Below, piece by piece: positions 2,992 to 47,495 of a DNA stretch of 64,000 nucleotides (position 1 is the stretch's first letter; each line of letters opens with the position of its first letter). Below the pieces are notes generated by a model that ran no database searches, was not told where the DNA came from, and saw only the letters and a program-made list of their open reading frames with translations. The DNA lies in the NCBI GenBank assembly GCA_963846425.1, contig CAWJVW010000005.1, positions 3,163,732 to 3,227,731 of the forward strand, read 5' to 3'. This DNA comes from an uncultured Acidobacteriota bacterium (GTDB lineage: Bacteria > Acidobacteriota > Vicinamibacteria > Vicinamibacterales > UBA2999). Position numbers and translations under genes: made by a program.

Positions 2992-5292
2992 ATGGTCACA
3001 GAGCGCGAGACCTTGACCGGTCGCCGACTCGGTCACTACCTCGTGCTGGACGAGATCGGCCGCGGCGGGATGGGAGTCGTGTACCTCGCAGAGGATACGA
3101 GGCTCAACCGGCGAGTCGCTCTCAAGCTTCTGCGTCCGGACATCGCCGAATCGGCCGATCGTCGCGCGCGGTTTCAGCAGGAGGCACGCGCCGCCGCCGC
3201 ACTCAATCATCCCAACATCGTGCACCTCTACTCGGTGGAGCAATTCGATGGCCTGCTGTTCATCACGATGGAGCTCGTCCAGGGCCGCAGCCTGCACAAG
3301 CTTCTAGATGCTGGTAATCCGCTCCCACTCCCAAGAACGCTGGCCTTCGCTGCTCAAATGACCGAGGGCCTGGCATGTGCGCATGCGGCCGGAATCCTGC
3401 ACCGGGATCTGAAACCCGGCAACGTCATGATTACCGACGACGACCGCGTCAAGATTCTCGATTTCGGATTGGCCAAGCTTCTGACGCCGGCCTCGGTGTC
3501 GGGTCCCGAGGCCGCGACGATGGCGGGAGTGGATTCCAGTTCGGGAATGACGTTTGGCACCGCTGGTTACATGTCTCCCGAACAGGCGCTTGGAAAGACG
3601 CTCGATCCACGGACGGACCTCTTCGCATTGGGAGTCGTACTTTTCGAGATGGCCACCGGCACAGCCCCGTTCGCGGGAGACACGCTGGCGGCGGTTTTCG
3701 ATCGACTCTTGAACGAACGGCCTCCCTCACCTCAAACACTGAATCCGGCCCTGCCCGCGTCCTTGGCAGCCATCATCGACAAATCGCTCGAGAAGGATCC
3801 GGATCGACGCTACGGGTCGGCAATCGAGCTTCTCCAGGATCTGAAACAAATCGATCCCTCGAGCACTGGTCGTCCGGCCCAATCGCCAGTTCCGGCCGAG
3901 GCGAGGATGCCGTCATCGATCGTCGTGCTTCCATTCGTCGACATGAGCCCGCAGAAGGATCAGGAGTACTTTTGTCACGGCGTCGCCGAAGAGATCATCA
4001 GCACCCTGACGACAGTGCCCGGCTTACGCGTCATCTCCCGCACGTCGGCGTTTGCCTTGCAAGGAAGCAATCTTGAAATCACTGAGATCGGGAGGAGATT
4101 GAAGGTTGGCACTGCTCTCGAGGGCAGCGTCCGCAAGGCAGGTGACCAGCTGCGTGTGACGGCGCAGCTCGTCAACGCCCAGGACGGCTATCAGCTCTGG
4201 TCCAAGCGCTTCGATTGTGAGCTGTCGGACGTCTTTGCGATTCAGGACGAAGTTGCCGCGACGATTGTCAACGAGCTTCGTAGCGGGCTCGCTGGCAAGC
4301 CCGCTGGGAAGCGAGCCCCATTGAACATGGCCGCGCACGACGCGTACCTGAAGGGGATGTACGCATTACACCAATGGACCGAGGTCTCGATGCAGCGCGC
4401 CATCGCCAGCTTTCAGGACGCGATCGCCCGAGATCCGGGCTTTGCCCCGGCGTACGCCGCGTTCGCAGAGGGTCACATCTGGCTCTACTCCGGACTGGGC
4501 ATCCTTTCGGCGGCCGAGACGATGCCCCAAGCCCGATGGGCAGTCGACAAGGCACTGGAGCTCGACCCGACTTTGGCGGATGCGTACACGTTGCGCGCCT
4601 TGATCGCAATGACCCACGACTGGGATCGGCATGGAACAGCGAAAGCCATCACCCGCAGCATCGAACTCGGTCCCGGGTCCGCCGCCGCGCATCTCCGGAA
4701 TGCATGGCGCCTCGCACTGCTCGAACGGCAACATCAGCAGGCCCTCGTGGAACTCGAGGAAGCCGAGCGGCTGGACCCCCTCGACTTTCAGCTGAAGACC
4801 TTGATTGGATACATCCACTACTTTCGACACGATCTCGATCGCGCCATCCATCAGTTCGAGCAGGTACTGGCGCTGGAACCGTCGTTCGCCTTTGCGCACT
4901 ATGCGCTCGGCGACGCGTGCACGCAGCGCGGGCAATACGACCGGGCATTTGCCGAGTTCGATACGGCGATCGAATTGGGCGGCCGAACCGTGAACCACAT
5001 CGGCGTGCTGGGCTATGCCTATGGGCGGTCGGGAAACCGCGATCGGGCCGAGGCGCTGCTACAGGAGCTCACGGCACGCGCATCGCAGGGATACGTTTCA
5101 GCGATATGGATCGCCATGATTCACCTTGGTCTGTCGGATCTCGAGAGCCTGTTCCACTGGCTTGACCGCGCCTTCGCCGAACGAGACGGCTCTTTGGTGT
5201 TGATCACGGCCGCTCTGGAGTTCGATCCCGTGCGTGAGGATCCTCGATTCAAGTCACTCCTGGGAAGGATGGGGCTTGGGCACTTGAGTTGA
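2992..5292 (+). CDS. Ser/Thr protein kinase with C-terminal TolB-N-like and TPR region
   Basis: GRGGMGVVY glycine loop, VALK, HRDLKPGN, DFG, SPEQ. The C-terminal half has TPR-like repeats. The ATG at 2992 is chosen because the longer ORF start (2878) overlaps the preceding gene. Confidence 0.9.
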   Translation: MVTERETLTGRRLGHYLVLDEIGRGGMGVVYLAEDTRLNRRVALKLLRPDIAESADRRARFQQEARAAAALNHPNIVHLYSVEQFDGLLFITMELVQGRSLHKLLDAGNPLPLPRTLAFAAQMTEGLACAHAAGILHRDLKPGNVMITDDDRVKILDFGLAKLLTPASVSGPEAATMAGVDSSSGMTFGTAGYMSPEQALGKTLDPRTDLFALGVVLFEMATGTAPFAGDTLAAVFDRLLNERPPSPQTLNPALPASLAAIIDKSLEKDPDRRYGSAIELLQDLKQIDPSSTGRPAQSPVPAEARMPSSIVVLPFVDMSPQKDQEYFCHGVAEEIISTLTTVPGLRVISRTSAFALQGSNLEITEIGRRLKVGTALEGSVRKAGDQLRVTAQLVNAQDGYQLWSKRFDCELSDVFAIQDEVAATIVNELRSGLAGKPAGKRAPLNMAAHDAYLKGMYALHQWTEVSMQRAIASFQDAIARDPGFAPAYAAFAEGHIWLYSGLGILSAAETMPQARWAVDKALELDPTLADAYTLRALIAMTHDWDRHGTAKAITRSIELGPGSAAAHLRNAWRLALLERQHQQALVELEEAERLDPLDFQLKTLIGYIHYFRHDLDRAIHQFEQVLALEPSFAFAHYALGDACTQRGQYDRAFAEFDTAIELGGRTVNHIGVLGYAYGRSGNRDRAEALLQELTARASQGYVSAIWIAMIHLGLSDLESLFHWLDRAFAERDGSLVLITAALEFDPVREDPRFKSLLGRMGLGHLS

Positions 5293-5296
5293 TCCG

Positions 5297-7279
5297 CTAA
5301 TCGAGCTTGCGCTGCGCGAATCGCGCGAGAATCATGGCCAGCGCGAGGAACAGCAGCCCGCCCAGAAGGTGTCCCATGACGTCTTCGCCATGCAGGAACG
5401 GCAAGGCATTGCCGACTGCCTGGAATGGCGCGATGGCCCCTGTGCCGACCAGGATGGCAAACAGGATCCCGGCTAGCGACCCGCCGGCGATCAGACCGGA
5501 GCTGAACAGCGTGCCCGAGCTGATATCGGAGTCCGATGTCACGCCGGTCTTACGCTCCACGAACCAGCGAACCATGCCGCCGACAAAAATGGGCGCCGTC
5601 GTTGCAATCGGCAAATAGGAACCGACGGCGAACGACAGCGATTGGATGCCGCAGAGTTCCAACGTGATCGCGATGAAGATGCCAACCAGCACCAGCCCCC
5701 ACGGCAGTTGCTGGTCGAGGAGCCCGCGGATGATCGTCGCCATCAGGGTCGCCTGAGGCGCCGCCGCCTGTTGCGAGCCGATGCCGAAGGTCTGGTGCAT
5801 ATAGAGCAACGTCCAGCCGATGACGAATGCTGATGTGATCACACCGATGGCGAGACCGAGTTGCTGGTAGAGCGGCGTCGCGCCGACGATGTACCCCGTC
5901 TTGAGATCCTGCGAGGTGTTGCCCGCGTTCGCGGCAGCGATGCAGATGATTGCGCCGACTGACAATGCGACCGGCGCGTAGATGCTGTCGTTCCATCCGA
6001 GACCGACGAAAATCACGCACGTGATGATGAGCGTCGCGATCGTCATGCCTGAAATGGGGTTCGAGGACGATCCGATCAGCCCGGTGATTCGTGACGACAC
6101 CGTGGCAAAGAAGAACCCGAAGAAAATGACCAAGACTGACACGACGAGGTTGCCCTGGGTCGGAAGGCCCGGCATCACTGCCAGGAAAATCGCGAGGGCG
6201 AGCGAGCCCGCGAGGACAACCGTCATCGGGATATCGCGCTCAGTGCGTAATTGACCGCCGGATGCTGCCGTGCCGAATCCCTTCAGCCCCTCACGCGCCG
6301 ACGACACGATCGTCGGCAGCGTTCGACCCAGCGTGATCAATCCTGCTGCGAGTACAGCGCCAGCGCCGATGTACCGGATGTACGCACTCCAGATTTGACC
6401 CGGGCTCATCTCGGCAATCAGGAACGGCTGGCCGGTCGCCGGGTTGAGCGCATTTGCCGGCGTGATGGGTGGAAATGGCGTCGGAATAGCCGAGCCCATG
6501 ATCGACATCAACGGCAGCAGCACCAGCCACGACAGCACACCACCGGCCACCATCGTCCCTGCGATCCGTGGGCCGATGACGTAGCCAACACCCATGTATT
6601 CGGGCGAGATGTCGATGTTGACCGTGGCGTTGGGAAACAAGCCGGTCCGCGCAAACGAATGCCCGACTTCTGTTCGAAACAGGTTGAAAATCCAGGAGAG
6701 AGACTTCCACAGCGCGCCGATGCCGAGTCCGCTGAACACGAGCGCCGCCAGTTTGCCGCCGCGTTCGCCTGCGACGAGCACCTCGGCACAGGCGGTTCCT
6801 TCGGGATAGGGCAGCACGCCATGTTCCTTCACGATGAGGGCACGGCGGAGCGGCACCATCATCAGCACCCCGAGAATGCCGCCGGCAAACGACAGCAGCA
6901 GGATTTGTGTGTAGTTGAAGTACGCCGGACCGTGCGGCACGAGGAAGATCAGCGCAGGAATCGTGAAGACGACGCCGCCGGCGACCGATTCACCCGCCGA
7001 CCCGATGGTTTGGACGATGTTGTTTTCGAGAATCGTCGATCCGCCGAGATGCTTGAGCACTGAGATCGCCAGAACGGCAATCGGAATGGAGGCCGACACG
7101 GTGAGCCCGGCGCGCAACCCGAGATACACCGTGGATGCGCCGAAGATCACGCCGAAGAGAATGCCGATCGCGATGGCTTTGGCAGTGAACTCGGCGGGCG
7201 AGTCAGAGGCGGCGACATACGGTCGAAATCCCCGGGCGTGCTCGACGGGCTGAGCCGTACGGGTCGTCGGAGTGGCCAT
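5297..7279 (-). CDS. OPT family oligopeptide transporter
   Basis: 660-aa polytopic membrane protein. The N-terminal [37 protein letters not shown] pattern is typical of OPT transporters. Confidence 0.85.
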
Positions 7280-7300
7280 GGGGCGGAATCATAACAGGAC

Positions 7301-7508
7301 GGGTGCGACAGGTGCGACGGGTGCGCTAGGTGCGATGGGTGCGGTGCGGTGCACGGGTGCACCGTGTACGGGTGCACAGGTGCACAGGTGCGGCGCAGAG
7401 GTGCGGTTGCGGGCGTGCGGGTGCGGTTGTCACAGGTACTGGCGGCGCCTGTCTCGCACCTGCACCGCACCTGTCGCACCGAGCGCACCTGTCGCACCCA
7501 GCGCACCC
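7301..7508. repeat. Inverted pair of degenerate 9-bp-period tandem arrays (GGTGCGNNN x13, then GCACCNNNN x7)
   Basis: GGTGC occurs on the plus strand at 7302, 7311, 7320, 7329, 7338 ... 7420. GCACC occurs at 7456 ... 7476, 7485, 7494, 7503. The block fills the divergent OPT/rex intergenic region. Confidence 0.9.
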
Positions 7509-7533
7509 GAAGTGATATCCTGTTTTCGGGCTT

Positions 7534-8199
7534 GTGAATTCACAGAACAAGCGGAAACCCAGCAACGAGCAAGTTTCCGAGCTCACGACCAACAGGCTCT
7601 CTGTTTACCTGCGCTGCCTGACGCAGCTCGAATCATCTGGCGTCGAAACCATCTCCTCGCAGGCGCTTGCCGAGCAATTCCATTTGAACGCCGCGCAGAT
7701 CCGCAAAGACCTCGCGTACTTCGGTGAGTTCGGCGTCCGCGGCGTCGGCTATTACGTCAAGGATCTCAAGCGGCATCTGCGACAGATTCTCGGACTCGAC
7801 CGCAAGCTCCGCGTGGCCGTCATGGGCGCAGGCAATCTCGGACAGGCGCTTGCCGACTACCCGGGATTTCGACGGGAGGGCTTCGAGATTGTGGCGCTCT
7901 TCGACGTGGCCGATAGCAAGATTGGCGACGAATCCCGGAGCGGCGTGCCAATTTTCGACATTCGCGAACTGAAGCGCCTCGTGCGTAAGGACCGGATCGA
8001 CATCGCCGTCATCGCGGTGCCGGCAGAGTCCGCACAGCCCGTGCTCGAACAGGTTGTCGGGGCCGGCATCAAGGCTATCCTGAACTTCTCGCCGGGCGCC
8101 TTGAAGGCACCACCCGGAGTGAAACTCAAGAGTGTGGACCTCACGGTCTCACTCGAAAGCCTGTCGTTTTATCTCGCGCAGGGCATCGACCCCGATTAG
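7534..8199 (+). CDS. rex: Redox-sensing transcriptional repressor Rex
   Basis: N-terminal winged helix (RLSVYLRCL...ISSQALAE), FGxxGVRGVGY, Rossmann [10 protein letters not shown]. Confidence 0.9.
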
Positions 8200-8251
8200 G
8201 ACGACGACTCAGGCCACAGGTCGAAGATCACGACAACGGACGCTTTCTCTT

Positions 8252-8812
8252 ATGCACCGACGTGTGAAACCGCCGCGCCTCAGCCACGTAGACGCCGATG
8301 GTCGAATCCAGATGGTGGACGTGGGCGCCAAGCCGGTCACCTCGCGCGAAGCGGTGGCTCGCGGCACGGTCAGCATGTCTGCCACCGCGCGGCGGCTCGT
8401 CCGATCCGGGCAAATCAAGAAAGGCGACCCCCTGCAGGCCGCACGGCTTGCCGGCATCATGGCCGCCAAGCGCACATCCGAGCTGATCCCGCTCTGTCAT
8501 CCGCTGCCATTGACTGTTGTCAACGTGGAGATAACCCCGACTCCTAGCGGCTATGCCCTAGAAGCCCGCGTCCGAACGTCCGCGCAGACCGGCGTGGAAA
8601 TGGAGGCGCTCACCGCGGTCGCGGTGGCGGCTCTCACGCTGTATGACATGGTGAAAGCGGTCGACAAGGGGATGGTGATCGGAGAGATGTGCCTTCTCGA
8701 GAAGCGGGGCGGCAAATCAGGTGAATATAGACGAACGAAGAACGAACAACGAGGAACGAAGAACGCAACGAAGAACCGGGAACGAGGAACGAAACGGAGA
8801 ACGAAACCGTGA
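8252..8812 (+). CDS. moaC: Cyclic pyranopterin monophosphate synthase MoaC, with a repeat-encoded C-terminal tail
   Basis: [47 protein letters not shown]. The last ~25 aa ([27 protein letters not shown]) are encoded by the left arm of the 8731-8904 repeat. Confidence 0.9.
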
Positions 8813-8904
8813 ACCGACGTTCGCCGTCGACCGTTGACCGTTCCGTTTTTTGTTGTCCGTTCCCCTGTTGCGTTCTTCGTTCTTGGTTTTTAGTTCTTAG
8901 TTCC
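8731..8904. repeat. Inverted pair of ~7-bp-period arrays (GAACGAA-like, then TTCGTTC-like)
   Basis: GAACG at 8733, 8740, 8754, 8761, 8780, 8787, 8799. CGTTC at 8818, 8839, 8858, 8871, 8878. GAACGAAGAACGCAAC is present in both arms in complementary orientation. Confidence 0.85.
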
Positions 8905-8906
8905 CC

Positions 8907-9890
8907 ATGAACGTTCTCGTCTCCATCCAGCAACCCGTGCGCGCCTGGCAGATTCCCGCCGAGGGTGTTGAGACACTGCGGGAGCGGTTTCCGGACGTCA
9001 ACTTCATTCACGCCACTGACGATCAAACACGCGCGAGCGGGCTCGAGGCTGCCGAGGTTGCTTTCACGTGGATCCTTTCGACAGCGGAGCTTGCGCGCGC
9101 ATCGCGCGTGCGCTGGGTTCACTCTTCAGCGGTTGCAGTCGAGACACTCTGTCTCCCCGAGCTTTTCGCGCGTCAGATCGTCGTTTCCAACTCGCGGGGT
9201 GTGCAGTCGGGCCCCATCGCGGAGCATGTGATGGCGGCCCTACTCGCGCTTGCGAAGCGATTGCCGTATGTGATCGATCGTCAGCGCGATCGGCAGTGGG
9301 CACAGAACGATTTCATTGGCGAACGGCTCCCGTGGCTGCTGCACGGCAAGACGCTGGGCTTGATTGGCGCGGGCACGATTGGCTCGGCAATCGCGCGGCT
9401 CGCGTCCGCCTTCGGCATGAAGGTGATCGCGCTGACGCGCCGCGCCGGACGCCCGAGGTCGGCGGACGTCGCCGAAATGCTGCCACCTGGAAGCCTCGAT
9501 CGTTTGCTCGCCGAGTCCGATGTTCTGGTGATCGCAGCGCCGCTCACACCCGAAACGCTCGACATGATTGGGGCCGCCCAACTTGCACGCATGAAGCGCG
9601 GGTCGGTGTTGATCAACGTCGGTCGCGCGCGAATCGTTGACCATCAGGCGCTTGCCAATGCGCTCCGCACCGGTCATCTCGGCGGCGCGTCGCTGGACGT
9701 CTTCCCACGCGAACCGCTGCCACCTGACGACCCGCTGTGGACGCTCCCCAATGTCATTCTCACGCCGCACACGTCGGGTTTCCGGCAGGGGCACTGGGAC
9801 GAGGTCATCGATTTGTTCAGCGAGAATTTGCGGCGCTACCGCCGCGGTGAACCGGTGCACTTTCGTGTCGAGCCAGAGTTGGGGTACTGA
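8907..9890 (+). CDS. D-isomer-specific 2-hydroxyacid dehydrogenase family protein
   Basis: NAD-binding GKTLGLIGAGTIGSAIA, DVLVIAAPLTPET, TPHTSG catalytic region. Confidence 0.85.
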   Translation: MNVLVSIQQPVRAWQIPAEGVETLRERFPDVNFIHATDDQTRASGLEAAEVAFTWILSTAELARASRVRWVHSSAVAVETLCLPELFARQIVVSNSRGVQSGPIAEHVMAALLALAKRLPYVIDRQRDRQWAQNDFIGERLPWLLHGKTLGLIGAGTIGSAIARLASAFGMKVIALTRRAGRPRSADVAEMLPPGSLDRLLAESDVLVIAAPLTPETLDMIGAAQLARMKRGSVLINVGRARIVDHQALANALRTGHLGGASLDVFPREPLPPDDPLWTLPNVILTPHTSGFRQGHWDEVIDLFSENLRRYRRGEPVHFRVEPELGY

Positions 9891-9892
9891 GT

Positions 9893-10006
9893 CGGTGGTT
9901 AAGGTGCCTGATGTGCCTAGAGTGCCTAGGGTGCCTCAAGTGCCTGACGTTCCACTAGTGCCGAAGCACGCTATGCACGCTAGGGACCCTAGGCACCATA
10001 GGCACC
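9893..10006. repeat. Inverted pair of 9-bp-period arrays (GTGCCTNNN x5, then AGGCAC x2)
   Basis: GTGCCT at 9903, 9912, 9921, 9930, 9939. AGGCAC at 9990, 9999. Same unit family as 47436-47489. Confidence 0.85.
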
Positions 10007-11154
10007 CTGATTACCGCCCGCAGCTTGATGGCCTGCGCGCGCTGGCCGTTGTCGCCGTCGCGTGGTCGCATTGGGAACGGGCGTATCAATTCGGGATCCC
10101 ATTCGGCGCCGGGGTCCACCTGTTTTACGCGCTCAGCGGGTTTCTCATCACAGGAATTCTGCTCGAAGTGCGGGCGCACGCGGATCGGATGAGCGCCGTT
10201 CGTGCGTTTTATGTGCGACGGGCGCTGCGGATCTTCCCCGCGTTTTACCTGACCCTCGCGCTGGCGTGGCTGGCGGATGTCACTCCAGTCCGTGAGACGT
10301 TGGCCTGGCACGTTGCTTACCTGTCGAACGTCCAGATCTTCCTGACGGAGACGTGGCCCGGATCAATTAGTCATCTCTGGTCGCTGGCGGTGGAAGAACA
10401 GTTCTACGTGATCTGGCCCTGGCTCATCGTGTTTGTGCCGCGTCGCTGGCTCGTGCCCGCTGTCGTTGTCGCGATCGTTTCCGCGCCCATGTTTCGATGG
10501 TGGTTGGCGACCGAGGGCTATCGCGAGACGCTGCTCGCCGTGTTGACACCAGGATGCCTGGATTCGCTGGGAGTGGGCGCGTTGGTGGCATTAATGGCGG
10601 GACCGAAGTCCCGCTCTACGAGCGACACGCACCGCGGGTCAACAGCCGACGGCCCACGGTCAGCGGTCGCCAACCACCAGTCTCCGGTCCGCCGTCTCCG
10701 GTCTCCCGTCGTCAGCCTTGGCGCCGCCGGATTCCTGACGGCGTTGCTGGTCGCTGAAGGTTCGGGGAGCCAACTGCCGCTCGGGCTTATCGCCCTCAAG
10801 CAGACTTTGCAGGCGATTGTTTTTGCGTGGCTGGTTTTCCGAGCGGCCGAAGGGTTTGGTGGCATCACCGGCCGCGTCTTGTCAGCCGGGCCTGTCGTCT
10901 ACATCGGCCGCATCAGTTACGGCATTTATCTCGCACACGGATTCGCCGGCGATCTCCTCGCCGGCGTCGGAATCAACAGCCGGGCGTTGCCTGAGCCGTG
11001 GCGTTTTATGATTCTGTCCGGTCTCACCGTGGGCCTTGCCGCCGTCTCGTGGCGCCTCGTGGAGAGTCCGATCAATGCGATGAAGGCACGGTTTCCGTAC
11101 ACGCGCGCTACTCGTTCTGCAGCGCCCGCACCGGGTCAATTCGCGACGCCGTAA
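9973..11154 (+). CDS. Acyltransferase family 3 (OafA-like) membrane protein
   Basis: LDGLRALAVVAVAWSHW start motif and a multi-TM body. The ATG at 9973 is the first start after the upstream gene and lies inside the repeat. The longer ORF start 9637 overlaps the dehydrogenase gene. Confidence 0.75.
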   Translation: MHARDPRHHRHPDYRPQLDGLRALAVVAVAWSHWERAYQFGIPFGAGVHLFYALSGFLITGILLEVRAHADRMSAVRAFYVRRALRIFPAFYLTLALAWLADVTPVRETLAWHVAYLSNVQIFLTETWPGSISHLWSLAVEEQFYVIWPWLIVFVPRRWLVPAVVVAIVSAPMFRWWLATEGYRETLLAVLTPGCLDSLGVGALVALMAGPKSRSTSDTHRGSTADGPRSAVANHQSPVRRLRSPVVSLGAAGFLTALLVAEGSGSQLPLGLIALKQTLQAIVFAWLVFRAAEGFGGITGRVLSAGPVVYIGRISYGIYLAHGFAGDLLAGVGINSRALPEPWRFMILSGLTVGLAAVSWRLVESPINAMKARFPYTRATRSAAPAPGQFATP

Positions 11155-13576
11155 TTGCGGGTACTAGATTCGCGAGCCCGGCGACCGCGAGCAACAACCC
11201 CGTCGCGGCGCCGTAAGCCAGCGCGTCCGCCCCGCCGACACCGTAGAGCAGAGATTCCAGTAAGCGGCCCAAGCCGGCCGATGCGACGGCTCCGAGCACA
11301 ATCCCGGTCAGGGCCAGGCGGCCGCCTTGCGCCAGGACCATTCGCAGCACTTGTCCCCGTTCGGCGCCGAGCGCCATCCGGATGCCTACCTCGCGCGTTC
11401 GTCGACTGACTGAGTACGCGACGACACCGTAGACGCCGACCGCGGCAAGCAACAACGCAAGCACGCCGAATGCGCCGAGCACCATGGCGCCGATGCGCGT
11501 GGGCGCCACGGTCGTCGCAGCCACATCCTCGGCCGGCACGTCCTCGGTGAACACGATGTCAGGCTCGAGCTTCCATAGCTGGTCTCGCAGCATTGGCAAT
11601 GCCGCCGAAGCAGGTGTGGCCGTGCGAACGATCAGGCCGATCGCCCGCGACCTTGCTTCTGGCAAATGGAGGTAGGGACGCGGCGCCTCGCCGACGGAGC
11701 GGACCTTGTGGTCGCGCGCGACGCCCACGATGACGAGTGGCTCCCGATCGCTCACATAGATCTGGCGACCTACCGCGGTGCCATCTGGCCAGAACAATTT
11801 CGCCATGGTTTCGTTGATGATGGCAACCTTGCGCGTGCCAGCCGTATCGTCCTGTGTGAACCGACGCCCCACCACGATAGGAATACCGACGACATCGAAG
11901 TAGTCAGCGCCAACTGCCACGGTATCGATTGGTGTGCCGTCATCATCCGGCGCGTGATGCCCCGGCACTCTGACGCCATCTATGTTGATGTCGGGCGCGA
12001 GAGGCAGCCGCGATGCCGTGGAAACAGCCGTCACGCCGGGAAGCGCGCGAAGTGCCTCCATTGCGCGATCCCGCAGTGCTGTTGCTCGATCCACGTCGTA
12101 CCCGTTCATTTGCAAGTTGAACGACAACGACGAGATGGGACGAGGGTCGTAGCCGAGGTCGGTATTCTGTGCCCGCACAAGGCCACGAGCGAGCAGCGCT
12201 CCCGCCACGAGCAGCACCAGCGACAAAGCGAGCTGCCCCACGACGAGCGCGTCTCGCACCGAGATGCGGCGTCGTCGAGCTGATTCCGCCGAGTCTTTGA
12301 GAGCCGGCACGAGATCAGGTTTCGAAGCTGTCCATGCTGGCGCCAACCCGAACAGCAAAGCCGTCGCGACCGACACGCTCGATGCAAACGTCAGCACCAT
12401 TTGGTCAATTGCAAAGTCGAACTCGATTGGCATCGGGAAAACGTTGCTTCCAACCCCCGACAACGCCCGCCCGGCCCACCACGCGATGAGCAAACCGATC
12501 GCGCCTCCGGCGACTGCGAGCAGCATGGATTCTGCAATCAGTTGCCTCACCAGGCGTCCGCGACTTGCGCCGATCGCTGCGCGGATGGCCAGCTCGCGCC
12601 GCCGCGCGGCACCACGCGCGAGGAGCATGCTCGCCACATTGCCGCACGCAATGAGCAGCACCAGGCCTACGGCGCCCAGCAGCGCGCCGCTGGCAGCACG
12701 AACATATCCATCCAGCATCGGATGAAAACGGATGTTAGCGGCGGGCAGGACACTGGCCGTAACCTTGTCATTGGTAATGGGGTGCTCGGTGGACAGGCGC
12801 CCAAAAATCGTCTCGACCTGAACGCGGGCGTCTTCGACCGTACGGCCTTCTGCCAACCGGCCCTTCAGGAAGAGCCAGCGCGTGCCGCGGCGAGTCAAAC
12901 GAGTCGTACCGGGGTCGTTGTCGGAGCTGGCCTGAACCCCGGAGAACTCCAGGCGCTCCACCATCGTCACTGGCACCCAGAACTCCGTCGGAATTCCCGG
13001 GAGTGTTCCTGTAAAGCCGGACGGCCCGACCCCCACGACCGTGTAGACGTGACCGGAGAGCCTCACTGTCTCGCCGATCACGGATGGACTGGCGCCAAAT
13101 TGTCGCTGCCAGAGCCCATGACCCAGGACCACTACCGACGCCGCATCCGGCCCGATGTCTTCACCCACTCGAAATCCGCGCCCCAGTGGTGGCCGGATGC
13201 CCAGCAGATCGAAGTAGTTGGCGCTCACCGCTTCGCCCGTGACCAGCCGGCCGCGATCGCGCGTCGACAGAATGCCGCGGACGTAGGCGTTCGCGGCGAC
13301 GCCGACCAGGGCGTCGGCCCCCGCGCGAATGTCGAGATAGTCCGGATACGACGTTGTCAGCTGAGGAAAGTCTTTGGTGAGGCCCGTGTAAATCTCGACC
13401 AGCCGGTCGGGTTCGGCGACCAGGCTGTCGCGAAGCAGTACGGCGTTCACGACGCTGAATAGGGCCGTGTTGAGGCCGATCCCCAGCGCCAGCGATCCGA
13501 TCGCAGCGGCGGCAAAGGCCGGACGGCGAAACAATTGGCGCGCCCCATGGCGCAGATCTCTCAGCAGTACGCTCAA
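11108..13576 (-). CDS. ADOP-family duplicated FtsX/MacB-like ABC permease
   Basis: 822 aa. N-terminus LRDLRHGARQLFRRPAFAAAAIGSLALGIG, with two MacB-periplasmic plus FtsX halves. Confidence 0.85.
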   Translation of the reverse strand: MSVLLRDLRHGARQLFRRPAFAAAAIGSLALGIGLNTALFSVVNAVLLRDSLVAEPDRLVEIYTGLTKDFPQLTTSYPDYLDIRAGADALVGVAANAYVRGILSTRDRGRLVTGEAVSANYFDLLGIRPPLGRGFRVGEDIGPDAASVVVLGHGLWQRQFGASPSVIGETVRLSGHVYTVVGVGPSGFTGTLPGIPTEFWVPVTMVERLEFSGVQASSDNDPGTTRLTRRGTRWLFLKGRLAEGRTVEDARVQVETIFGRLSTEHPITNDKVTASVLPAANIRFHPMLDGYVRAASGALLGAVGLVLLIACGNVASMLLARGAARRRELAIRAAIGASRGRLVRQLIAESMLLAVAGGAIGLLIAWWAGRALSGVGSNVFPMPIEFDFAIDQMVLTFASSVSVATALLFGLAPAWTASKPDLVPALKDSAESARRRRISVRDALVVGQLALSLVLLVAGALLARGLVRAQNTDLGYDPRPISSLSFNLQMNGYDVDRATALRDRAMEALRALPGVTAVSTASRLPLAPDINIDGVRVPGHHAPDDDGTPIDTVAVGADYFDVVGIPIVVGRRFTQDDTAGTRKVAIINETMAKLFWPDGTAVGRQIYVSDREPLVIVGVARDHKVRSVGEAPRPYLHLPEARSRAIGLIVRTATPASAALPMLRDQLWKLEPDIVFTEDVPAEDVAATTVAPTRIGAMVLGAFGVLALLLAAVGVYGVVAYSVSRRTREVGIRMALGAERGQVLRMVLAQGGRLALTGIVLGAVASAGLGRLLESLLYGVGGADALAYGAATGLLLAVAGLANLVPAITASRIDPVRALQNE

Positions 13577-21265: not shown

Positions 21266-21316
21266 GACTCGGCGGTTTCACCGCCTCGTAAGACTCGCTC
21301 GCTTTGCTCGCTCGTC
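21265..21316. mobile_element. Miniature copy of the GGACTCG...CGAGTCC palindromic element
   Basis: GGACTCGGCGGTTTCACCGCC...GCTCGCTCGTCC starts on the G of the TAG stop. Its ends resemble the elements at 32818 and 36230. Confidence 0.45.
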
Positions 21317-23743: not shown

Positions 23744-24889
23744 TTAATCTTGCATCATTGCAAGCAGAAGTCTTGACGCGATGTCAGCGCCGTTCACGGC
23801 CGGGTCCTCAGGCGGGCGTGGTTGCGCAAGCAACGCGTCGAGGTAAGGCGTCCAGTTGCCGGCAAAGAGATCGGAATGATCAATGTATGCGGTGCGCAGA
23901 AACCGCGGCATCTCGGCAACCAAAACGTCATATTCGATAAAGTGTCCGCGTGACGTGTGCAGCAGCGCCGTGTCGTTGGCAAGGCATTCGGCGATGATTC
24001 CGTAGCCAGGCTTAGTGACGACCACTTCGACGCTGCGAACGATGTCCTCGTAGCGAAAACCTGCCGTATACATGGCGGGCTCGTCGAGTGGAATGGGTGA
24101 GGGATTCGACAATTGTTCCGCCGTCATCATCAGGTTGGCCGGTACAAGCGCCACAAAACCGTCGAGTTGTCCCAGTCGATCGAGGTCGAGACGCTCGAGG
24201 CCATAGCCGCCAAAAGAGACGAGCACGAGTCGCTTGTCCAGCGGAAAGCCCATCGCCGTTCGCGTCTCCAGCGGATCGCGTGCTGACCGTCGCGCAATGA
24301 ACGGAACGTCGACAACCCGGGGGAACGCCGCGAATCCGCCGTGCATCGGCAGACGCAGTGCGAGATCGGCTCGCGCATACGCGTTTCCGATCGCGCGGAC
24401 GACCTCGTCCGTGTCTGGGTACGCCGCGTAGATCCAGTCCCACGTGAAGTTTCCCAGAGCAATCGCGGGCACGCCGGCGGTGGCGGCGGCCGCAACGCCG
24501 AGCGGTGGAATATCGGCGACAACGATCGAGGCACGCACGTCGTTCAAAAAGGCGACTTCATGGGTCACTCGCGTGTCAAACGTGCGCATGAAATCGGAGG
24601 CGCGGTCGACCGTTTGTCCAACGTTTAGATGGAGGCTGTCGATCTGGACGACGCCGGTGTCGGTTTCGATGGGGTGATACTCGATTGGCTGCGAGCTCCG
24701 CACAGTTAGATCGAACAGCCACTTGGGCGCCATCGTCCGGACGATGATGCGGAGATCCGGGTCATGCGCGAGAAGCGCATTGATGACTTCGACGCTGCGG
24801 GAGGCGTGACCGAACCCATGGCCGGAAATGTAGAAAACGAGGGTTCTCTTCGAGGGTTCCTTCCGGGATTTCCCGACAAGAGTTCCCAT
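23744..24889 (-). CDS. Putative GT-B fold glycosyltransferase (GT1/GT28-like)
   Basis: N-terminal FYISGHGFGHASRS motif, ~380 aa two-lobed protein. Assignment is from memory of the family. Confidence 0.5.
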   Translation of the reverse strand: MGTLVGKSRKEPSKRTLVFYISGHGFGHASRSVEVINALLAHDPDLRIIVRTMAPKWLFDLTVRSSQPIEYHPIETDTGVVQIDSLHLNVGQTVDRASDFMRTFDTRVTHEVAFLNDVRASIVVADIPPLGVAAAATAGVPAIALGNFTWDWIYAAYPDTDEVVRAIGNAYARADLALRLPMHGGFAAFPRVVDVPFIARRSARDPLETRTAMGFPLDKRLVLVSFGGYGLERLDLDRLGQLDGFVALVPANLMMTAEQLSNPSPIPLDEPAMYTAGFRYEDIVRSVEVVVTKPGYGIIAECLANDTALLHTSRGHFIEYDVLVAEMPRFLRTAYIDHSDLFAGNWTPYLDALLAQPRPPEDPAVNGADIASRLLLAMMQD

Positions 24890-24952
24890 GGGTTCTTTGC
24901 TGGGGTTCTTTGCTTGGTTCCTTTACTGAAGCTCCCTACCGAGGTTCTTTTA
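24842..24952. repeat. Direct degenerate GGTTCYTT repeats
   Basis: GGTTC at 24842, ~24856, 24891, 24904, 24916, 24943. The block spans the glycosyltransferase start, the 46-bp spacer and the lon stop. Confidence 0.6.
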
Positions 24953-27356: not shown

Positions 27357-27472
27357 CGCGCGATTCTTGGTTGATCATACGTCGGGTCGCAACTACCATC
27401 GGCTCAGGTTGAATTGTAGGGTGGTTGTTTGTCTTAGTCCCGCTAGCACGCGGGCAGAGAGAGGGGCGGGCC

Positions 27473-30314
27473 ATGAGGGCAGTGTTCCATCGGATCTGTC
27501 TTGTGTTGTTGGTTTCGGGGTTGGTTACGTCGACGGCGTGGGCGCAGCAGACCGGCACGCTAGCGGGCGTCGTGCGTGACGCTCAGGGTGCAGTGCTCCC
27601 CGGTGTCACCGTCACGGCCTCAAGTCCGGCGCTCATTGGAGGTGCGCGCACCACCGTAACCGGTGAGGCGGGAGCGTACCAGATTACGACTCTTCCCCCA
27701 GGCGCGTACGTCATCACCTACGAGCTGGCCGGATTCGCGCCGCTCAAACGAGAGGGTATCGAGTTGCAGGTCGCACGAAGCACGCGACTCGACGTCGAGC
27801 TCACCCTCGGCACGGTCCAGGAGACCATCACCGTGAGCGGAGATTCGCCCATGGTCGACGTCGGCTCCACCGTGACGCAGACCAACATCACGAAGGAGAT
27901 CTACGACACGATCCCGACGGGCCGCAACCCGTGGGTCATGGCGGGTCTGGTGCCTGGCGTGGTGACCGGGCGGCTCGATGTCGGCGGTACCGAGGGCATG
28001 CAGCAGTACAACCTCGAAGCGTTCGGATCCGCCGACAGCCAGAAGTCGTTCTCTATCGACGGCCTGAAGACCAACTGGGGCGGCGGGCGCTGGCGGCTCG
28101 ACGATGCAGTACTACGGCTTCGAGATGTACGACGAGTACAACATGCAGACGGCGTCAGGTACCGCGGAGAGTGATGTCAGCGGCGTCTACATGAACATGG
28201 TGACGAAGTCTGGTGGCAACCGCTTCAGCAGCGATCACAACTTCTATTTCATGAACGACGCGCTGCAGGGCGACAACGTGGACGATGACCTTCGGACGAG
28301 GCTTGGCCTCCAGCCTGGCCAGCAAACGGGCGCCGCGGGTAACCCCGTCGACATCTCCTACGACTGGAGCTCCACGCTCGGCGGCCCAATCAAGAGAGAT
28401 CGTGCATGGTTCTTTACGGCACTGAGACGCTGGCGGCTCGACCAGTTTCAGATTGGCGCGCTCAATGCGGATGGTTCACAGGCGATCGACGACAACCGCA
28501 TCGAGAATTACATGGGTAAGGTGACCGCGCAGCTTGCCACGAACAGCCGTGCGTCGTTCTTATTCAATCGAAACCTGAAATACCGATTTCACCGCCGCGA
28601 CGCTCCGTATCTGTTCGTCGAAGACCGCGCGACCGTGTTGCAGGATCAGCCGGCACAGAATTATGTGGCTCAGCTGAACCACGTGATCGGCGGAAAGGCC
28701 GTCCTCGACGCGCGCGTCGGACGGATGTGGGGTGTGTTTCCCACCCGATATCAACAGGAGGTAGGGCCAGACGATATCGCCGTCCGGGATTCAGTCCGCA
28801 ATACCCGTATCAACGCCGCAGAAGTGCAATCGCTGAATCCGAATCACCGATATCAGGCGAACGCTGCGCTCAGCTACTTCGCCGACAAGCTTGGCATCGG
28901 AGCGCATGATTTCAAGGTCGGTACACAACTCTCGTGGGAGCGGATGGCGTACGATCGCGTGCGCAACGGTGACATTCTCCTCGAACTCGTCGATGGCGTG
29001 GCGACCCGTGCGTTCTTGTCCAACACTCCCATCAACTCCGATCACCGTCTCGAAACGTGGGCGGTCTTTGCACAGGATCGATGGACGGTCGGCCGCGCAA
29101 CGATCAACCTCGGTGTTCGGATGGACGGCGTCAAGGCGTATCTGCCCGAGCAGTCAAGCCCCGCAGGCACGTGGGTTGGCGAACGCAGTTTCCCAGAACG
29201 CGACGTGTTCGAATTCTCCGCAAACGTCGCCCCGCGACTCGGGATCACCTATGACCTGTTGGGCAACGGTCGCACCGCACTCAAGGCGTACTTTGGCCGC
29301 TTCTACAACCAGTTCGGATCGGAGCTCGCCGAGGCTTCGAACCCGAATGGGGCCGTGTTGCCCGGAATACAGGTGCCTTGGAACGATTCAAACAGCAACC
29401 TCCGTGCAGATCCTGGCGAGCTGAATCTGTCGACGTTTACAGGATTCCAAGCAGGGCTCTTTCCTCCGATTGATCCGGACGCGGGAAGGCCGTATAGCGA
29501 CGAAATCAACGTCGGCGTCGATCATCAGCTTCTGCCGAACTTCGCGGTAGGAGTCAGCTATCATCGTCGGCAACATCGCGACGGTTTGACCATTCTCGAT
29601 CGCGCCAGACCAGCGAGTGCATACACGCCAGTCACCAGACCGTACACGGATCATGGTGCGGCGCAAACAATAACCGTCTACAATCTCGATCCGTCGCTCG
29701 TGACGCGCCGCGATCGCATCATCACGAACGTGGATGGTCTCCGAAGCGACTACGACGGCGTTATCTTCAGCGTGAACAAGCGCCTGTCCAACCGCTGGCA
29801 GATGCTCGCGGGCCTGACGATTCAGAACCATCAGGGCTTCCCGCACGACGGCACCTTCACCAACACTACCAACCTGACGGACTTCAATAACCCGAACTAC
29901 GTACTGAATCGCGATGATTCGGCAGTCTTGACCGATGTTCCGTGGGGGTTCGGGCTGTCGGGCAGCTATCAGCTGCCGTACGGAATCGTGTTTTCGGGTA
30001 AATACACCGCCGGCGCCGGCGGCCCGTTGACGCGTACGCTCGTTGTCAGCAACCTGACGCAGGGTAGTGAAACTGTGTGGGTGCAGCCTCGCGGCGTTGA
30101 CCGCGTCGAGGTCGTCAACAAATTCGTGGACGTGCGCTTTGCCAAACGCCTCACGGTTGGCGCAGCCCGCCTCGAGGGAACGCTGGACGTCTTCAACATG
30201 ATGAACGCGAATCATGTGACCGGGCAGATCGAAGCCGTCGGCACCACGACCGGTCGCCCGAATCGTATTCTGACCCCACGGATCGTCCGATTCGGCATAA
30301 CGGCTCGGTTCTAG
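27473..30314 (+). pseudogene. TonB-dependent receptor with carboxypeptidase-regulatory-like N-domain; frame broken near 28079-28090
   Basis: Signal peptide + GTLAGVVRDAQGAVLPGVTVTA...YQITTLPPGAY (CarboxypepD_reg) in ORF 27425..28174. The expected continuation ...WGGG/AGAGGSTMQYYGFEMYDEYNMQT and the beta-barrel ending ARF lie in ORF 28104..30314, one frame over. Confidence 0.8.
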
Positions 30315-30315: not shown

Positions 30316-30408
30316 TGGGGCAGGAAGGGCGGGTGGGGCCGGTAGGGCAGGTGAGTGCGGTCGGAGTACAATTCCGGCAGCTTACCTGCCACACCAGCCC
30401 AACCACCT
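30316..30408. repeat. G-rich array followed by its C-rich complement (imperfect hairpin)
   Basis: GGTGGGGCCGGTAGGGCAGGTGAGTGCGGTCGG pairs with CCGGCAGCTTACCTGCCACACCAGCCCAACCACC. It fills the whole spacer between the stop at 30314 and the ATG at 30409. Confidence 0.75.
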
Positions 30409-30873
30409 ATGTCACTAGACGAACGCGCGTTCTTCTCCGACAAAAACGAAACACGGCCGGCACGCTACACGTGCACGCGATGTCAACGCACCAACGAATA
30501 CAACGTGCGGTGGGTGCGACGCGTGAAGAAAGATCGCCTGCCGCCAGGCGCAGACGAGCGCGACCGCGCGAAGTTTGCCAAGCTCCGTGATCATCTCATC
30601 CGTGTGGATGACGAGGTCGTCTGCAAGACGTGCGGGAAGAAGTTCGAGATCCCGTCACTGCACTCGCTGTTGTTCGTCGATCAGCTGGAAGGGTTGCCGC
30701 GCGATGTGGAAGAAGAGGAGGGCGGGACTTCAGTCCCGCCAGATGCCGACCGTGATAGTTCCGCTACCAAAGGCCCGGAACGACGCGCCAGCGAACAGCC
30801 TGCTGATAGGCGCGGTACTGATCGCCGTGGGCCGCGACGAGTGACCTCTCCTCCCAGGGGATGGCGAGGATGA
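30409..30873 (+). CDS. Zinc-ribbon hypothetical protein
   Basis: CTRC...CKTC pairs. ATG 30409 sits immediately after the repeat. The low-complexity tail overlaps the convergent gene by ~110 nt, so the true 3' end is uncertain. Confidence 0.45.
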   Translation: MSLDERAFFSDKNETRPARYTCTRCQRTNEYNVRWVRRVKKDRLPPGADERDRAKFAKLRDHLIRVDDEVVCKTCGKKFEIPSLHSLLFVDQLEGLPRDVEEEEGGTSVPPDADRDSSATKGPERRASEQPADRRGTDRRGPRRVTSPPRGWRG

Positions 30874-31478: not shown

Positions 31479-31552
31479 CTGGTGATCTGGTGATCTGATG
31501 ATCTGGTGATCTAGTGATCTAGTGATCTCGTGATCGGTGATTGGGTGTTGGT
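31479..31552. repeat. Direct 8-bp-period array GGTGATCT (7 exact-period units + degenerate tail), each unit carrying GATC
   Basis: TGATC at 31483, 31491, 31499, 31507, 31515, 31523, 31531. It lies in the divergent spacer between the methyltransferase and the ketosynthase. Confidence 0.9.
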
Positions 31553-32817: not shown

Positions 32818-33063
32818 GACGCGGCCGGTGCGACTTCGGCCGAGCGGGACGCGCATCGCGTCGCAGGCACACTCGCGCGCAGGACGCCCGTCGCTTCGCT
32901 CGGGCGCGGGATCTCGGCGGCTTCGCGCCTCGAGTTAGGAACCAAACGCTCGCACGGGTTTGCGTCGCCGAACGGCGGCGCTCCGGCACGCGAACGAAGT
33001 GAGCGTGTCCTGCGCGAAAGCGATGCGACGGGCGTCCTGCGAGCGAGCGAAGCGAGCGAGTCG
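32818..33063. mobile_element. ~245-bp GC-rich palindromic (MITE-like) element, copy A
   Basis: Internal 15-bp perfect inverted repeat: CAGGACGCCCGTCGC (32880-32894) and GCGACGGGCGTCCTG (33025-33039). The core 32967-33016 is the reverse complement of 36285-36334 (48/50). Confidence 0.7.
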
Positions 33064-33065
33064 TT

Positions 33066-34253
33066 GTGAATGATGTCATCGTCGTGGGTGCCGGCCCGGC
33101 CGGCTCGTTGGCCGCGTTGATTCTGGCGCGCGCGGGAGTACGCGTGCGCGTCTTCGACCGCGCACGGTTTCCGCGCACGAAGCTGTGTGGCGACACGCTC
33201 AATCCGGGGGCGTTAGGTTTGCTCGCTGCATATGTGCCGATCGAGCAACTGCTGAAGCGTTCACTTCGGCTGGACGGCATGGTCCTGACCGGGCCTGGGG
33301 GAGTCGCTGTACGCGGCCGCTATCAAACCGGGCTCGAGGGCCGCGCGATCCCGCGAGCAACTCTCGATGTGATGGTGGTACAGCACGCCGTTGGTGCGGG
33401 TGTGCAGTTTGATGACGGCGTATCGGTCTTCGGTCCGATCCGTGATGCGCATGGGCATGTGATCGGTGTGTCAGTCAAAGGCGCGAACGGCCACACGCAC
33501 GAACATCGCGCCCGCATCGTGATTGCTGCTGACGGTCGCGAGTCGCGCCTCGCCCGAGCGCTCAACCTGCTGCACCACCCAATGCAACCGCGCAGGTGGG
33601 CGATTGGCGGTTACTTTGATGGCGTGGACGACCTGACCAGCGCTGGCGAAATGCACATTCGGCGTGGGCATTACATTGGCGTCGCGCCGATGCCTGACGG
33701 GCTCTCGAACGTGTGCCTGGTCGTGCCCCACCAGGCTGGCGATCGCGCGTGGCCCGATCCCGCTTGTGCGTTGACCGCATCCTTGACGGGAGATGCGCAA
33801 CTGGCGCCGCGCTTTGTCCGGGCACGACTGGTCTCGCGTCCCCAGGTCCTCGGCCCGATGGCAGTCGATGCCACGGCGGCGGGGGTCCCGGGATTACTGC
33901 TTGCCGGCGACGCGGCCGGCTTCATCGACCCGATGACCGGCGATGGGCTTCGGTTTGCGTTCGCGGGGGCCGCGCTCGCAGCTGGTATCGCCGTCGACGT
34001 GCTGGCGGGTCGTCTCGACATCGAAGCTGCGCCAGCGCGACTGGCTGCCGACCGTCGTCAGATGTTTCGCGCCAAATGGCGATTCAATCGGACACTGCGC
34101 GCGTTGGTGGCATCAGCGCCTGCCGTAGGGGCCGCCGCGGTTGGCGCCCGCTTGCTGCCATCGGCGTTCGCAGCCATCATCCGCTACGCAGGGGACTGCA
34201 ACGCTGCGGTGCCGGCAGGTGCCGCGGGTGCCGCAAGTGCCGAAGGTCATTAG
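33066..34253 (+). CDS. FAD-dependent oxidoreductase, geranylgeranyl-reductase-like
   Basis: VIVVGAGPAGS dinucleotide motif, LLAGDAAGFIDPMTGDG. The C-terminal AAVPAGAAGAASAEGH is encoded by a 9-bp repeat. Confidence 0.8.
   Translation: MNDVIVVGAGPAGSLAALILARAGVRVRVFDRARFPRTKLCGDTLNPGALGLLAAYVPIEQLLKRSLRLDGMVLTGPGGVAVRGRYQTGLEGRAIPRATLDVMVVQHAVGAGVQFDDGVSVFGPIRDAHGHVIGVSVKGANGHTHEHRARIVIAADGRESRLARALNLLHHPMQPRRWAIGGYFDGVDDLTSAGEMHIRRGHYIGVAPMPDGLSNVCLVVPHQAGDRAWPDPACALTASLTGDAQLAPRFVRARLVSRPQVLGPMAVDATAAGVPGLLLAGDAAGFIDPMTGDGLRFAFAGAALAAGIAVDVLAGRLDIEAAPARLAADRRQMFRAKWRFNRTLRALVASAPAVGAAAVGARLLPSAFAAIIRYAGDCNAAVPAGAAGAASAEGH
34209..34245. repeat. Direct 9-bp-period GTGCCGNNN repeats inside the 3' end of the oxidoreductase gene
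   Basis: GTGCCG at 34209, 34219, 34228, 34237. Confidence 0.7.
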
Positions 34254-34291
34254 GCTGAACTCTCGACGATTCACGTCAACGCTTCCATACC

Positions 34292-34801: not shown

Positions 34802-34808
34802 GGCGCAC

Positions 34809-36468: not shown

Positions 36469-36527
36469 TTCAGCGCCCGCGCGACGTCTTACCGGCAGGC
36501 GGGCGTACCGCTATACTGGCTTCGTTC

Positions 36528-47489: not shown

Positions 47490-47495
47490 TTCCCT

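Follow-up and report, generated by a model that had tools for sequence, protein, structure and literature searches.

Paired Tandem Arrays of Short Units and Their Complements at Gene Boundaries in Vicinamibacterales, Probable Palindromic Minisatellites of Local Origin

Results

Anatomy and Predicted Fold of the Array between OPT and rex

The window analyzed here is a stretch of 64,000 nucleotides from an uncultured Acidobacteriota bacterium of the order Vicinamibacterales (assembly GCA_963846425.1, contig CAWJVW010000005.1). At positions 7301–7508, between the divergent genes for an OPT transporter and for Rex, it carries two tandem arrays, the first built from a short unit and the second from the complement of that unit. 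The pentamer GGTGC occurs 13 times on the plus strand (at 7302, 7311, 7320, 7329, 7338, 7343, 7348, 7356, 7371, 7379, 7387, 7400, and 7420), with exact 9-nt spacing of the first five copies, and GCACC follows seven times (at 7456, 7462, 7467, 7476, 7485, 7494, and 7503), with the final five copies 9 nt apart. An earlier prediction, made from the sequence alone and referred to below as the original prediction, had both counts and the spacing of the first five copies right but limited the regular run of GCACC to four copies. The density of the pentamer in the window, 215 per 64 kb on both strands, would lead one to expect about 0.7 copies in 206 nt. Tandem Repeats Finder (TRF) delimits two arrays at the locus, 7298–7406 and 7466–7508, with periods of 9 and 18. 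The inner units of the left arm are irregular, and local GTGCAC palindromes lie among them.

When the region 7280–7533 is folded as a single strand, it forms one long hairpin with a minimum free energy (MFE) of -173.7 kcal/mol, as compared with -121.4 for shuffled sequences (z = -10.6). This and the other fold statistics are RNA MFE values set against dinucleotide shuffles. The best inverted repeat at the locus is 57 nt long with 81% complementarity (7291–7347 against 7462–7518), so that the long imperfect hairpin anticipated in the original prediction is upheld. The order of the variant units within the arms also matters for the fold. When the units of one arm were shuffled among themselves and the MFE was recomputed, the values were -153.8 ± 4.9 for the left arm, with none of 300 shuffles reaching the observed value, and -158.8 ± 5.8 for the right arm, where 1.3% reached it. 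Because shuffling of the units worsens the fold, the two arms mirror each other in their unit variants, beyond sharing a common consensus. Mirror order was also found in a relative, at positions 8192–8405 of locus L004 (MFE of -134.5 against -109.5 ± 5.9; none of 200 shuffles). We regard it as probable, together with the account of its origin given below, that 7301–7508 is a palindromic minisatellite, that is, a short-unit tandem array and then a mirror-ordered array of its complement.

The array occupies exactly the stretch between two conserved -10-like boxes, which bound it on the left and on the right. About 30 species with neighboring OPT and rex genes conserve the box on the OPT side, and the box on the rex side is found throughout the rex loci; a promoter role is proposed for both from their sequences. 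In most of these approximately 30 species the spacer between OPT and rex is free of arrays and only 49–76 nt long. At the orthologous position L007 and L008 have a single palindrome of the AAGGTGCC/GGCACCTT type, and L004 and L005 have up to five units, as compared with 13 + 7 in the window. Because the array lies between the two boxes, it is probably upstream of both transcription starts, and its hairpin is probably not transcribed. No Shine-Dalgarno-like sequence is apparent near the OPT and rex starts, which suggests leaderless or very short-leader mRNAs whose promoters stand back to back in about 50 nt of spacer. In the OPT-rex spacer of one short-read assembly (L048, about 5820–5930), a GGGGAGGTKC array is broken by a run of N, which may reflect either a scaffolding gap that the repeat provoked or a stretch masked by the collection.

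Paired Arrays across the Order

The survey set of 948 kb consisted of the window and 80 Rex loci (81 genomes, one genome per species being scanned), designated L002 and so on, and was searched with TRF over its whole length. All 80 Rex loci returned come from Vicinamibacterales or Acidobacteriota metagenome-assembled genomes (MAGs). The records of nine of them (L018, L019, L024, L031, L037, L044, L048, L050, and L058) include some titled "cyanobacterium," "Acidimicrobiia," or "Bifidobacteriaceae"; the Rex proteins of these oddly titled MAGs are 83–88% identical to that of the window and their rex-moaC neighborhood is Vicinamibacterales-like, and the taxonomic labels are probably wrong.

TRF returned 75 arrays of period 7, 22 of period 8, and 20 of period 9. 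Wholly intergenic positions are taken by 56 of the 75 period-7 arrays and 20 of the 22 period-8 arrays (76 of 97 together) against an intergenic baseline of 11%. An array was scored as paired if at least two consecutive reverse-complement units lay no more than 300 nt away, and units that were only reversed or only complemented served as controls. A complementary partner array was found for 44–48 of the 94 non-coding arrays, as compared with 0–6 for the controls. An array followed by a complementary array is a habit across the order Vicinamibacterales. Clean examples are AAATCCC x5 with GGGATTT x5 in L083, AGGCCAAG with CTTGGCCT in L015, and AGTTCAA with TTGAACT in L009, and because both long-read and short-read MAGs contain such examples, the design is genuine and not an artefact of assembly, and it is an order-wide trait. 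Paired arrays lie in 12 of 103 convergent, 14 of 281 co-directional, and 3 of 114 divergent spacers; the variety of gene contexts described in the original prediction is therefore found in the survey as well.

The units differ from locus to locus, with about 70 distinct units among the 94 non-coding arrays, and a dispersed consensus shared by the arrays was not found in the window. The arrays therefore arise locally and have not spread as copies, and the notion of a repeat family with a type locus, under which the array between OPT and rex had been described, is not supported, there being no common sequence across loci. The loci at 7301, 9893, 34208, and 47436, which have a GGTGC core, are the only ones in the window with a common motif.

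Frequency was judged in the window with strong arrays, defined as having at least three copies and a period of 5–12. Nine are present, as compared with 0.07 per dinucleotide shuffle, and none was found in a 50-kb control from Escherichia coli; the excess over shuffled sequence on which the original prediction depended is thus real.

Turnover of Units and Arms between Relatives

Two independent short-read contigs, L002 and L003, carry the same Rex and are 95–97% identical in DNA to the window. In the spacer that follows the dehydrogenase gene (9893–10006), the window has 7 + 5 units of the GTGCC type, and L002, at 95% identity, has only GGTGCC and TAGGCACC, a symmetric difference of 90 nt. At the same spacer L004 has about 10 + 10 units and L007 has 11 + 12, whereas L008 retains three right-arm units only, which means that an unpaired array can be the remnant of a paired one. 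Copy number shifts quickly between relatives, often in both arms together. The spacer between moaC and the dehydrogenase gene shows how sporadic the arrays are. Of 48 species, 13 have an array there, built from no fewer than 10 different units, and the array-free spacers have a median length of 44 nt.

Another rearrangement concerns an AGTTACA hairpin in L007 and L008. Between collinear flanks that are 95% identical, its loop and inner units are inverted; the reverse-complement alignment scores 29 as compared with -7 for the forward alignment, and blastn matches the minus strand at 86.6% over 119 nt. Between L007 and L008 a variant unit, AGTTGCA, has changed sides, from the right arm to the left. 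The inversion of the loop and the displaced variant are direct evidence for recombination between arms in DNA. This case was found by eye and then confirmed by alignment and blastn. An all-against-all blastn screen for loop inversions missed it and gave six candidates, all of which are probably self-complementary segments; five of the six cluster together at about 3700–3900. The same two relatives differ by a 1.2-kb indel adjoining the GTGCC hairpin (L007 8161–9428 against L008 8160–8210). The acyltransferase gene is gone in L008, the end points share a 7-nt microhomology (GCTACTC), and the entire left hairpin arm has been lost from L008 in the same interval.

A metagenome scan gave zero matches to a 30-mer of the rex promoter that the window shares without difference with L002 and L003. 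Exact-protein look-ups with the zinc-ribbon and ICMT genes that adjoin arrays returned no further DNA beyond the contig of the window.

Other Array Loci in the Window

The coordinates of the arrays and associated features are collected in Table 1. By their predicted folds, five further loci are true hairpins of an array plus its complement, which makes six with the OPT-rex array, and their z values range from -3.5 to -10.6. The five direct arrays listed at the end of the table (24838–24920, 31479–31552, 34208–34247, 41863–41896, and 55799–55834) have no complementary arm, and their z values are about 0. A weak array at 10680–10710 (14 nt x 2.2 copies) lies within the acyltransferase open reading frame (ORF). 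The claim that the same design recurs at 10 or more loci thus stands for the six hairpins but not for five of the eleven listed loci, which lack a complementary array and one of which is coding.

Table 1. Positions of the arrays, their arms, and the bounding promoter-like boxes in the window
Feature	Position	Strand	Remarks
-10-like box, OPT side (TATGAT on minus strand; also given as TATCAT); putative promoter element	7287–7296	-	7–8 nt upstream of OPT ATG (7279)
Whole predicted stem of OPT-rex array	7293–7523		Includes 7 nt of unique flank per side (AACAGGA / TCCTGTT)
Left arm	7302–7424	+	13 GGTGC-core units; outer five with 9-nt period, forming an 18-nt higher-order unit
Central non-repeat spacer, predicted hairpin or cruciform loop	7425–7455		From sequence and fold
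Right arm	7456–7507	+	Seven GCACC units; variant order mirrors outer left arm
Extended -10-like box, rex side (TGATATCCT; TGnTATTCT); putative promoter element	7511–7521	+	About 12–20 nt before rex GTG (7534)
GAACGAA / TTCGTTC hairpin	8733–8903		z = -7.7; between moaC and 2-hydroxyacid dehydrogenase gene
GTGCCT-NNN / NNN-AGGCAC hairpin	9894–10015		z = -5.4; begins 3 nt past dehydrogenase stop codon
G-rich 9-mer array and partly complementary arm	30319–30413		z = -4.6; 2 nt past stop of 28104–30314; convergent spacer
GGTGCCTNN / NNAGGCACC hairpin	47434–47491		z = -3.8; 1 nt past stop of 43887–47435
CAGGSNN hairpin	51327–51407		z = -3.5; ends at ATG (51409) of zinc-ribbon protein gene; divergent spacer
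GGTTCYTT-type direct array, period 13	24838–24920		Spans glycosyltransferase gene start; without complementary arm
GGTGATCT x8 direct array	31479–31552	+	Between divergent genes; without complementary arm
GGTGCCGNN x4 direct array	34208–34247	+	Forms C-terminal tail of ORF 33066–34253
ACCGGAG x4.4 direct array	41863–41896	+	Fills 39-nt spacer between DUF58 and BatA genes
AGGCAAA x5 direct array	55799–55834	+	63 nt downstream of citrate synthase stop codon (minus strand)

The relation of the arrays to codons was described correctly in the original prediction. As read from the sequence, arrays begin 1–3 nt after a stop codon at 9893, 30316, 41863, and 47436, and one ends at a start codon at 51408. 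Others overrun the stop codon. The left arm of the hairpin at 8733–8903 encodes the final 27 or so residues of the MoaC ORF (array tail, 8714–8812, of GAACGAA units), and ORF 33066–34253 ends in AVPAGAAGAASAEGH, for which GGTGCCGNN units code. For the acyltransferase, the publicly annotated start is at 9973, within a hairpin arm. Beside the hairpin that ends at 51407, an identification of 51409–51693 and 51747–53360 as groES and groEL was rejected; they encode a zinc-ribbon protein and an FHA-GAF-SpoIIE phosphatase.

Several other features of the window were recorded. The segments 32818–33065 and 36231–36527 are copies, in opposite orientation, of an element of about 190–250 nt (74% identity over 185 nt; also 21292–21314). 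Both are long imperfect palindromes, with RNA MFE values of -150 and -184, and contain GCGAGCGAAGCGAGCG-type motifs, and the pair brackets 33066–36230, which holds FAD monooxygenase, ICMT methyltransferase, and PMT_2-like genes. From its sequence this looks like a true dispersed element resembling a miniature transposable element with inverted repeats (MITE) or a repetitive extragenic palindrome (REP), distinct from the tandem arrays. ORF 27425–28174, with a CarboxypepD_reg domain, overlaps the outer-membrane β-barrel ORF 28104–30314 in a different frame; 27425–30314 may represent a single TonB-receptor-like gene interrupted by a frameshift, either a real one or a long-read error. On the minus strand, 11108–13576 encodes a permease of 822 residues with two MacB_PCD plus FtsX modules, a duplicated orphan-permease architecture that we take to be typical of Acidobacteria and that agrees with the affiliation of the Rex loci.

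Relation to Known Repeat Classes

Among known classes the arrays fit the long simple sequence repeats LSSR(5–11), or bacterial minisatellites, which are head-to-tail arrays of 5–11-nt units, dominated by heptamers, in environmental bacteria with large genomes (Mrazek et al. 2007, summarized in PMC4679880). The units in the order are likewise arranged head to tail beyond chance, mostly in non-coding DNA, with heptamers commonest, and copy number is polymorphic between the window and L002/L003, among L004, L005, L007, and L008 at the OPT-rex spacer, and between L007 and L008. It has been proposed that LSSR(5–11) arise by slippage of the polymerase and tend generally to expand, with no specific function (summarized in PMC4679880). 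The class is defined by direct repeats, and, as far as checked in that summarized description, neither pairing with a complementary array nor Acidobacteriota forms part of it. The original prediction was thus correct that the arrays are not CRISPR, REP or bacterial interspersed mosaic elements (BIME), or Correia elements, but not that they belong to no named class, since they fit LSSR(5–11) and the inverted arrangement has been described in Xanthomonas (PMC4692102).

The closest precedent is that of the inverted pairs of GGGAATC heptamer arrays in Xanthomonas. In X. campestris and X. axonopodis pv. citri these arrays are 89–93% intergenic (Rehm et al. 2015, PMC4692102), and 70–75 of about 185 (about 40%) are convergent pairs able to form stem-loops or cruciforms. 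They lie near the upstream stop codon or extend over it, seldom occur between divergent genes, and keep their position while differing in length between related species (PMC4692102). Two close convergent arrays of complementary units are what we find as well, both in the partner counts and in the folds. There are four differences. (i) Xanthomonas has essentially one G-rich unit genome-wide, with G-quadruplex potential, whereas Vicinamibacterales have a unit per locus, mostly not G-rich (in the window only 30316–30353 is G-rich), with no single dominant unit. (ii) Periods of 8 and 9 also occur. (iii) Mirror-ordered variants, arm loss, and loop inversion are seen in Vicinamibacterales and are not described for Xanthomonas. 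(iv) The arrays reported here belong to a different phylum, the Acidobacteriota. A full-text literature search gave no description of such repeats for Acidobacteria or Vicinamibacterales.

Other classes are more distant. The short tandemly repeated repetitive (STRR) heptamers of cyanobacteria and the TAACTGA repeats of Beggiatoaceae are also intergenic tandem heptamers of variable copy number (MacGregor 2015, PMC4679880), but they use few fixed units per genome, and the TAACTGA repeats, with 169 direct sets and one indirect, lie just upstream of start codons (PMC4679880). REP and BIME of enterobacteria and pseudomonads are intergenic and palindromic, are often found in 3' untranslated regions or between cistrons, and would act similarly as stem-loops if the arrays are transcribed; however, REPs are copies of one 20–40-nt consensus mobilized by a RAYT transposase and not locus-specific tandem arrays of 7–9-mers. 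This class was rejected, as no common palindrome consensus of 20–40 nt exists among the loci. A Pfam scan of 26 array-flanking ORFs, a subset of those in the window, gave no match to a transposase. CRISPR, with repeats of 23–50 nt, unique spacers of similar length, and usually neighboring cas genes, was rejected because the units here are 5–9 nt long and 0–15 nt apart and the flanking genes are OPT and rex. Rfam 15 gave no matches at gathering thresholds over the whole window, and a tRNA scan was likewise empty.

Discussion

Origin of the Paired Arrays

We favor, as the probable explanation, palindromic minisatellites that are generated locally, in which slippage would expand seed hairpins and exchange between the arms at the DNA level would keep them complementary. 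A small pre-existing hairpin would serve as the seed, at gene 3' ends usually one of the terminator type without a U-tract. Replication slippage would duplicate arm sequence of 7–9 nt. Exchange between arms, by intramolecular recombination or by template switching across the quasi-palindrome, would then cause expansions, deletions, and unit variants to become mirrored. Growth would halt only at constrained sequence, such as -10 boxes and start codons, and stop codons could be overrun. Seeds of this kind are plausible, because 47% of the array-free convergent spacers are strongly structured (z < -2), as compared with 9% of the divergent ones, and hairpins at 3' ends are therefore normal in the order. 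On this account the arrays probably result incidentally from the replication and recombination of DNA and are not a dedicated device. In small inversions of plastid genomes a loop flips between the inverted arms that flank it, and in quasi-palindrome template-switch mutagenesis, associated with Ripley and with the Lovett laboratory, one arm of an imperfect palindrome is reportedly copied onto the other. The mirrored variants and the loop inversion between L007 and L008 resemble these established processes at the DNA level, which are described for single short palindromes and not for tandem arrays.

Local generation by slippage and arm exchange is opposed by a number of observations. Slippage, template switching, the seed hairpins, and effects on RNA are steps that we infer from the patterns described. 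Mirror order was not significant at 9893–10010, and its significance is confined to long arrays. The genes used in the statistics came from a simple home-made caller, based on codon usage and trained on the window, which is crude. The preference of paired arrays for convergent over co-directional over divergent spacers is equally expected under selection for terminators. Motifs of the AAGGTGCC type recur in several non-orthologous spacers and several species, which hints at a sequence-specific component. Finally, the texture of the GGTGC-type arrays (7301–7508, 9893–10006, 34208–34247, and 47436–47491 in the window, L004 8192–8405, and L007 8170–8360) is not what duplication of whole units and subsequent uniform point mutation would predict, for a core of 5–6 nt is nearly invariant, whereas almost every unit has a spacer of its own sequence and length (0–10 nt) between cores. 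The left-arm and right-arm spacers at 9893 even lack complementarity to each other. Two causes may be considered, correction by template switching that is restricted to the paired cores or a factor that recognizes the core. Variation is not generally clustered within units; such clustering was significant in only three of eight testable arrays of fixed period. A gradient from regular outer to degenerate inner units was not significant over 44 arms (p = 0.20), and the pattern at the OPT-rex array, at 8733–8903, and at L007 8170–8360 is therefore not claimed as general.

A more specific proposal, which we put forward only tentatively and consider rather unlikely, is a lineage-specific process of hairpin-templated repeat expansion in Vicinamibacterales that would build long palindromic minisatellites from seeds at gene boundaries and leave a conserved core, such as GGTGC, and hypervariable spacers. 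Its products would be bidirectional terminators or RNase III sites and also segments that recombination can invert or delete. Such a process would be distinct from the generic slippage of other bacteria, possibly dependent on a specific factor, and a route by which structured intergenic elements originate de novo.

Selection for RNA Structure

The arrays might instead be selected RNA structures, namely bidirectional (I-shaped) terminators without a U-tract, blocks to 3' exonucleases, or RNase III sites between cistrons, their tandem texture reflecting lengthening of the stem by compensatory duplications. We consider this unlikely. The high stability of the stems is in its favor, as are the excess of paired arrays in convergent spacers and their scarcity in divergent ones, the many arrays that begin just past a stop codon, and the strong hairpins in array-free 3' spacers of the order. 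Also in its favor is that classical terminators of a hairpin plus U-tract do not exceed chance frequency in 5000–12000, where a scan gave four sites as compared with 5.0 expected, none of them at arrays. An intrinsic terminator was itself rejected as the identity of the arrays, because no right arm is followed by a run of T; the view in the original prediction that they are not simply terminators is consistent with this. However, among 17 co-directional spacers no strand asymmetry is apparent, the lower MFE being that of the sense strand in eight and of the antisense strand in nine, with 129 and 119 G-U pairs, respectively. The sporadic presence of arrays at the moaC-to-dehydrogenase spacer also speaks against selection, as do the lack of a complementary arm in half of the arrays and stems far longer than termination requires. 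Moreover, the OPT-rex array and 51327–51407 lie in divergent spacers, the former, by our placement of the -10-like boxes, upstream of both.

Long double-stranded RNA stems are expected to pause or terminate RNA polymerase, to block 3' exonucleases, and to be cut by RNase III. Where arrays are transcribed, their stems of 20–100 bp would act as U-less terminators, hairpins that protect 3' ends, or substrates of RNase III, and we would regard a terminator or RNase III role as secondary. For the structure between OPT and rex, a tendency of the DNA to form cruciforms is probably all that matters, and it probably lacks a dedicated function.

Binding Sites, Mobile Elements, and Artefact

For the OPT-rex array and the other GGTGC-core arrays only, a factor that binds the GGTGC/GCACC cores has to be weighed. 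The arrays would then be a multi-site operator, a sponge, or a nucleoid-organizing element in the rex/OPT region. The nearly invariant core among spacers that vary in sequence and length would fit such a factor, as would the location of the OPT-rex array within a divergent promoter region and the recurrence of the core, which is found four times among the loci of these 64 kb and at several places in other species. The motifs AAGGTGCC and AGGTGCCT are 35% and 50% intergenic, respectively, a 3–4.5-fold enrichment over the baseline of 11%. We nevertheless consider a binding-site array quite improbable: the spacing of the cores ranges from 5 to 20 nt and shows no helical phasing, most arrays of the order are built on other units, copy number runs from 1 + 1 to 11 + 12 at one orthologous spacer in close relatives, most relatives have a short, array-free OPT-rex spacer, and a candidate protein is not known.

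Non-autonomous mobile elements of the MITE, REP, or Correia type, with internal tandem repeats and inserted in spacers, are very improbable, although the intergenic location and the palindromic overall shape would suit them, L008 has the AGTTACA unit at two loci (235–349 and 11603–11725), and the window contains the genuine dispersed palindromic element described above. The unit changes at almost every locus, there are no common terminal inverted repeats or target duplications, and different species keep the core of the unit at orthologous positions although its copy number shifts. A MITE- or Correia-like identity was rejected because loci with the same unit have unrelated loops and flanks and the window holds no dispersed copies of the arrays. 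An artefact of long-read metagenome assembly or sequencing may be dismissed as next to impossible, for although the window comes from a 3.3-Mb metagenome contig and the short-read contigs break inside the OPT-rex array, with L002 and L003 both beginning in its right arm, that right arm and the hairpin at 8733–8903 are reproduced in these independent short-read assemblies, and the same design occurs in dozens of MAGs from different projects and assemblers (MEGAHIT and SPAdes).

Implications

Although Vicinamibacterales abound in soil, hardly any genetics exists for them. If our interpretation is correct, about one-fifth of the non-coding DNA of the window (about 1 kb of 4.7 kb) would be self-generated palindromic minisatellites. 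Such arrays would break short-read assemblies and mislead gene callers, as in the window with two ORF tails and one called start in a hairpin, and they would also offer hypervariable markers for strain resolution. The single spacer with between 1 + 1 and 11 + 12 units would provide a natural series for the birth, symmetry, inversion, and loss of hairpins. The unexplained observation in Xanthomonas would be generalized from one G-rich unit to arbitrary units, and the formation of inverted arrays by arbitrary units would argue against G-quadruplex formation as their common cause.

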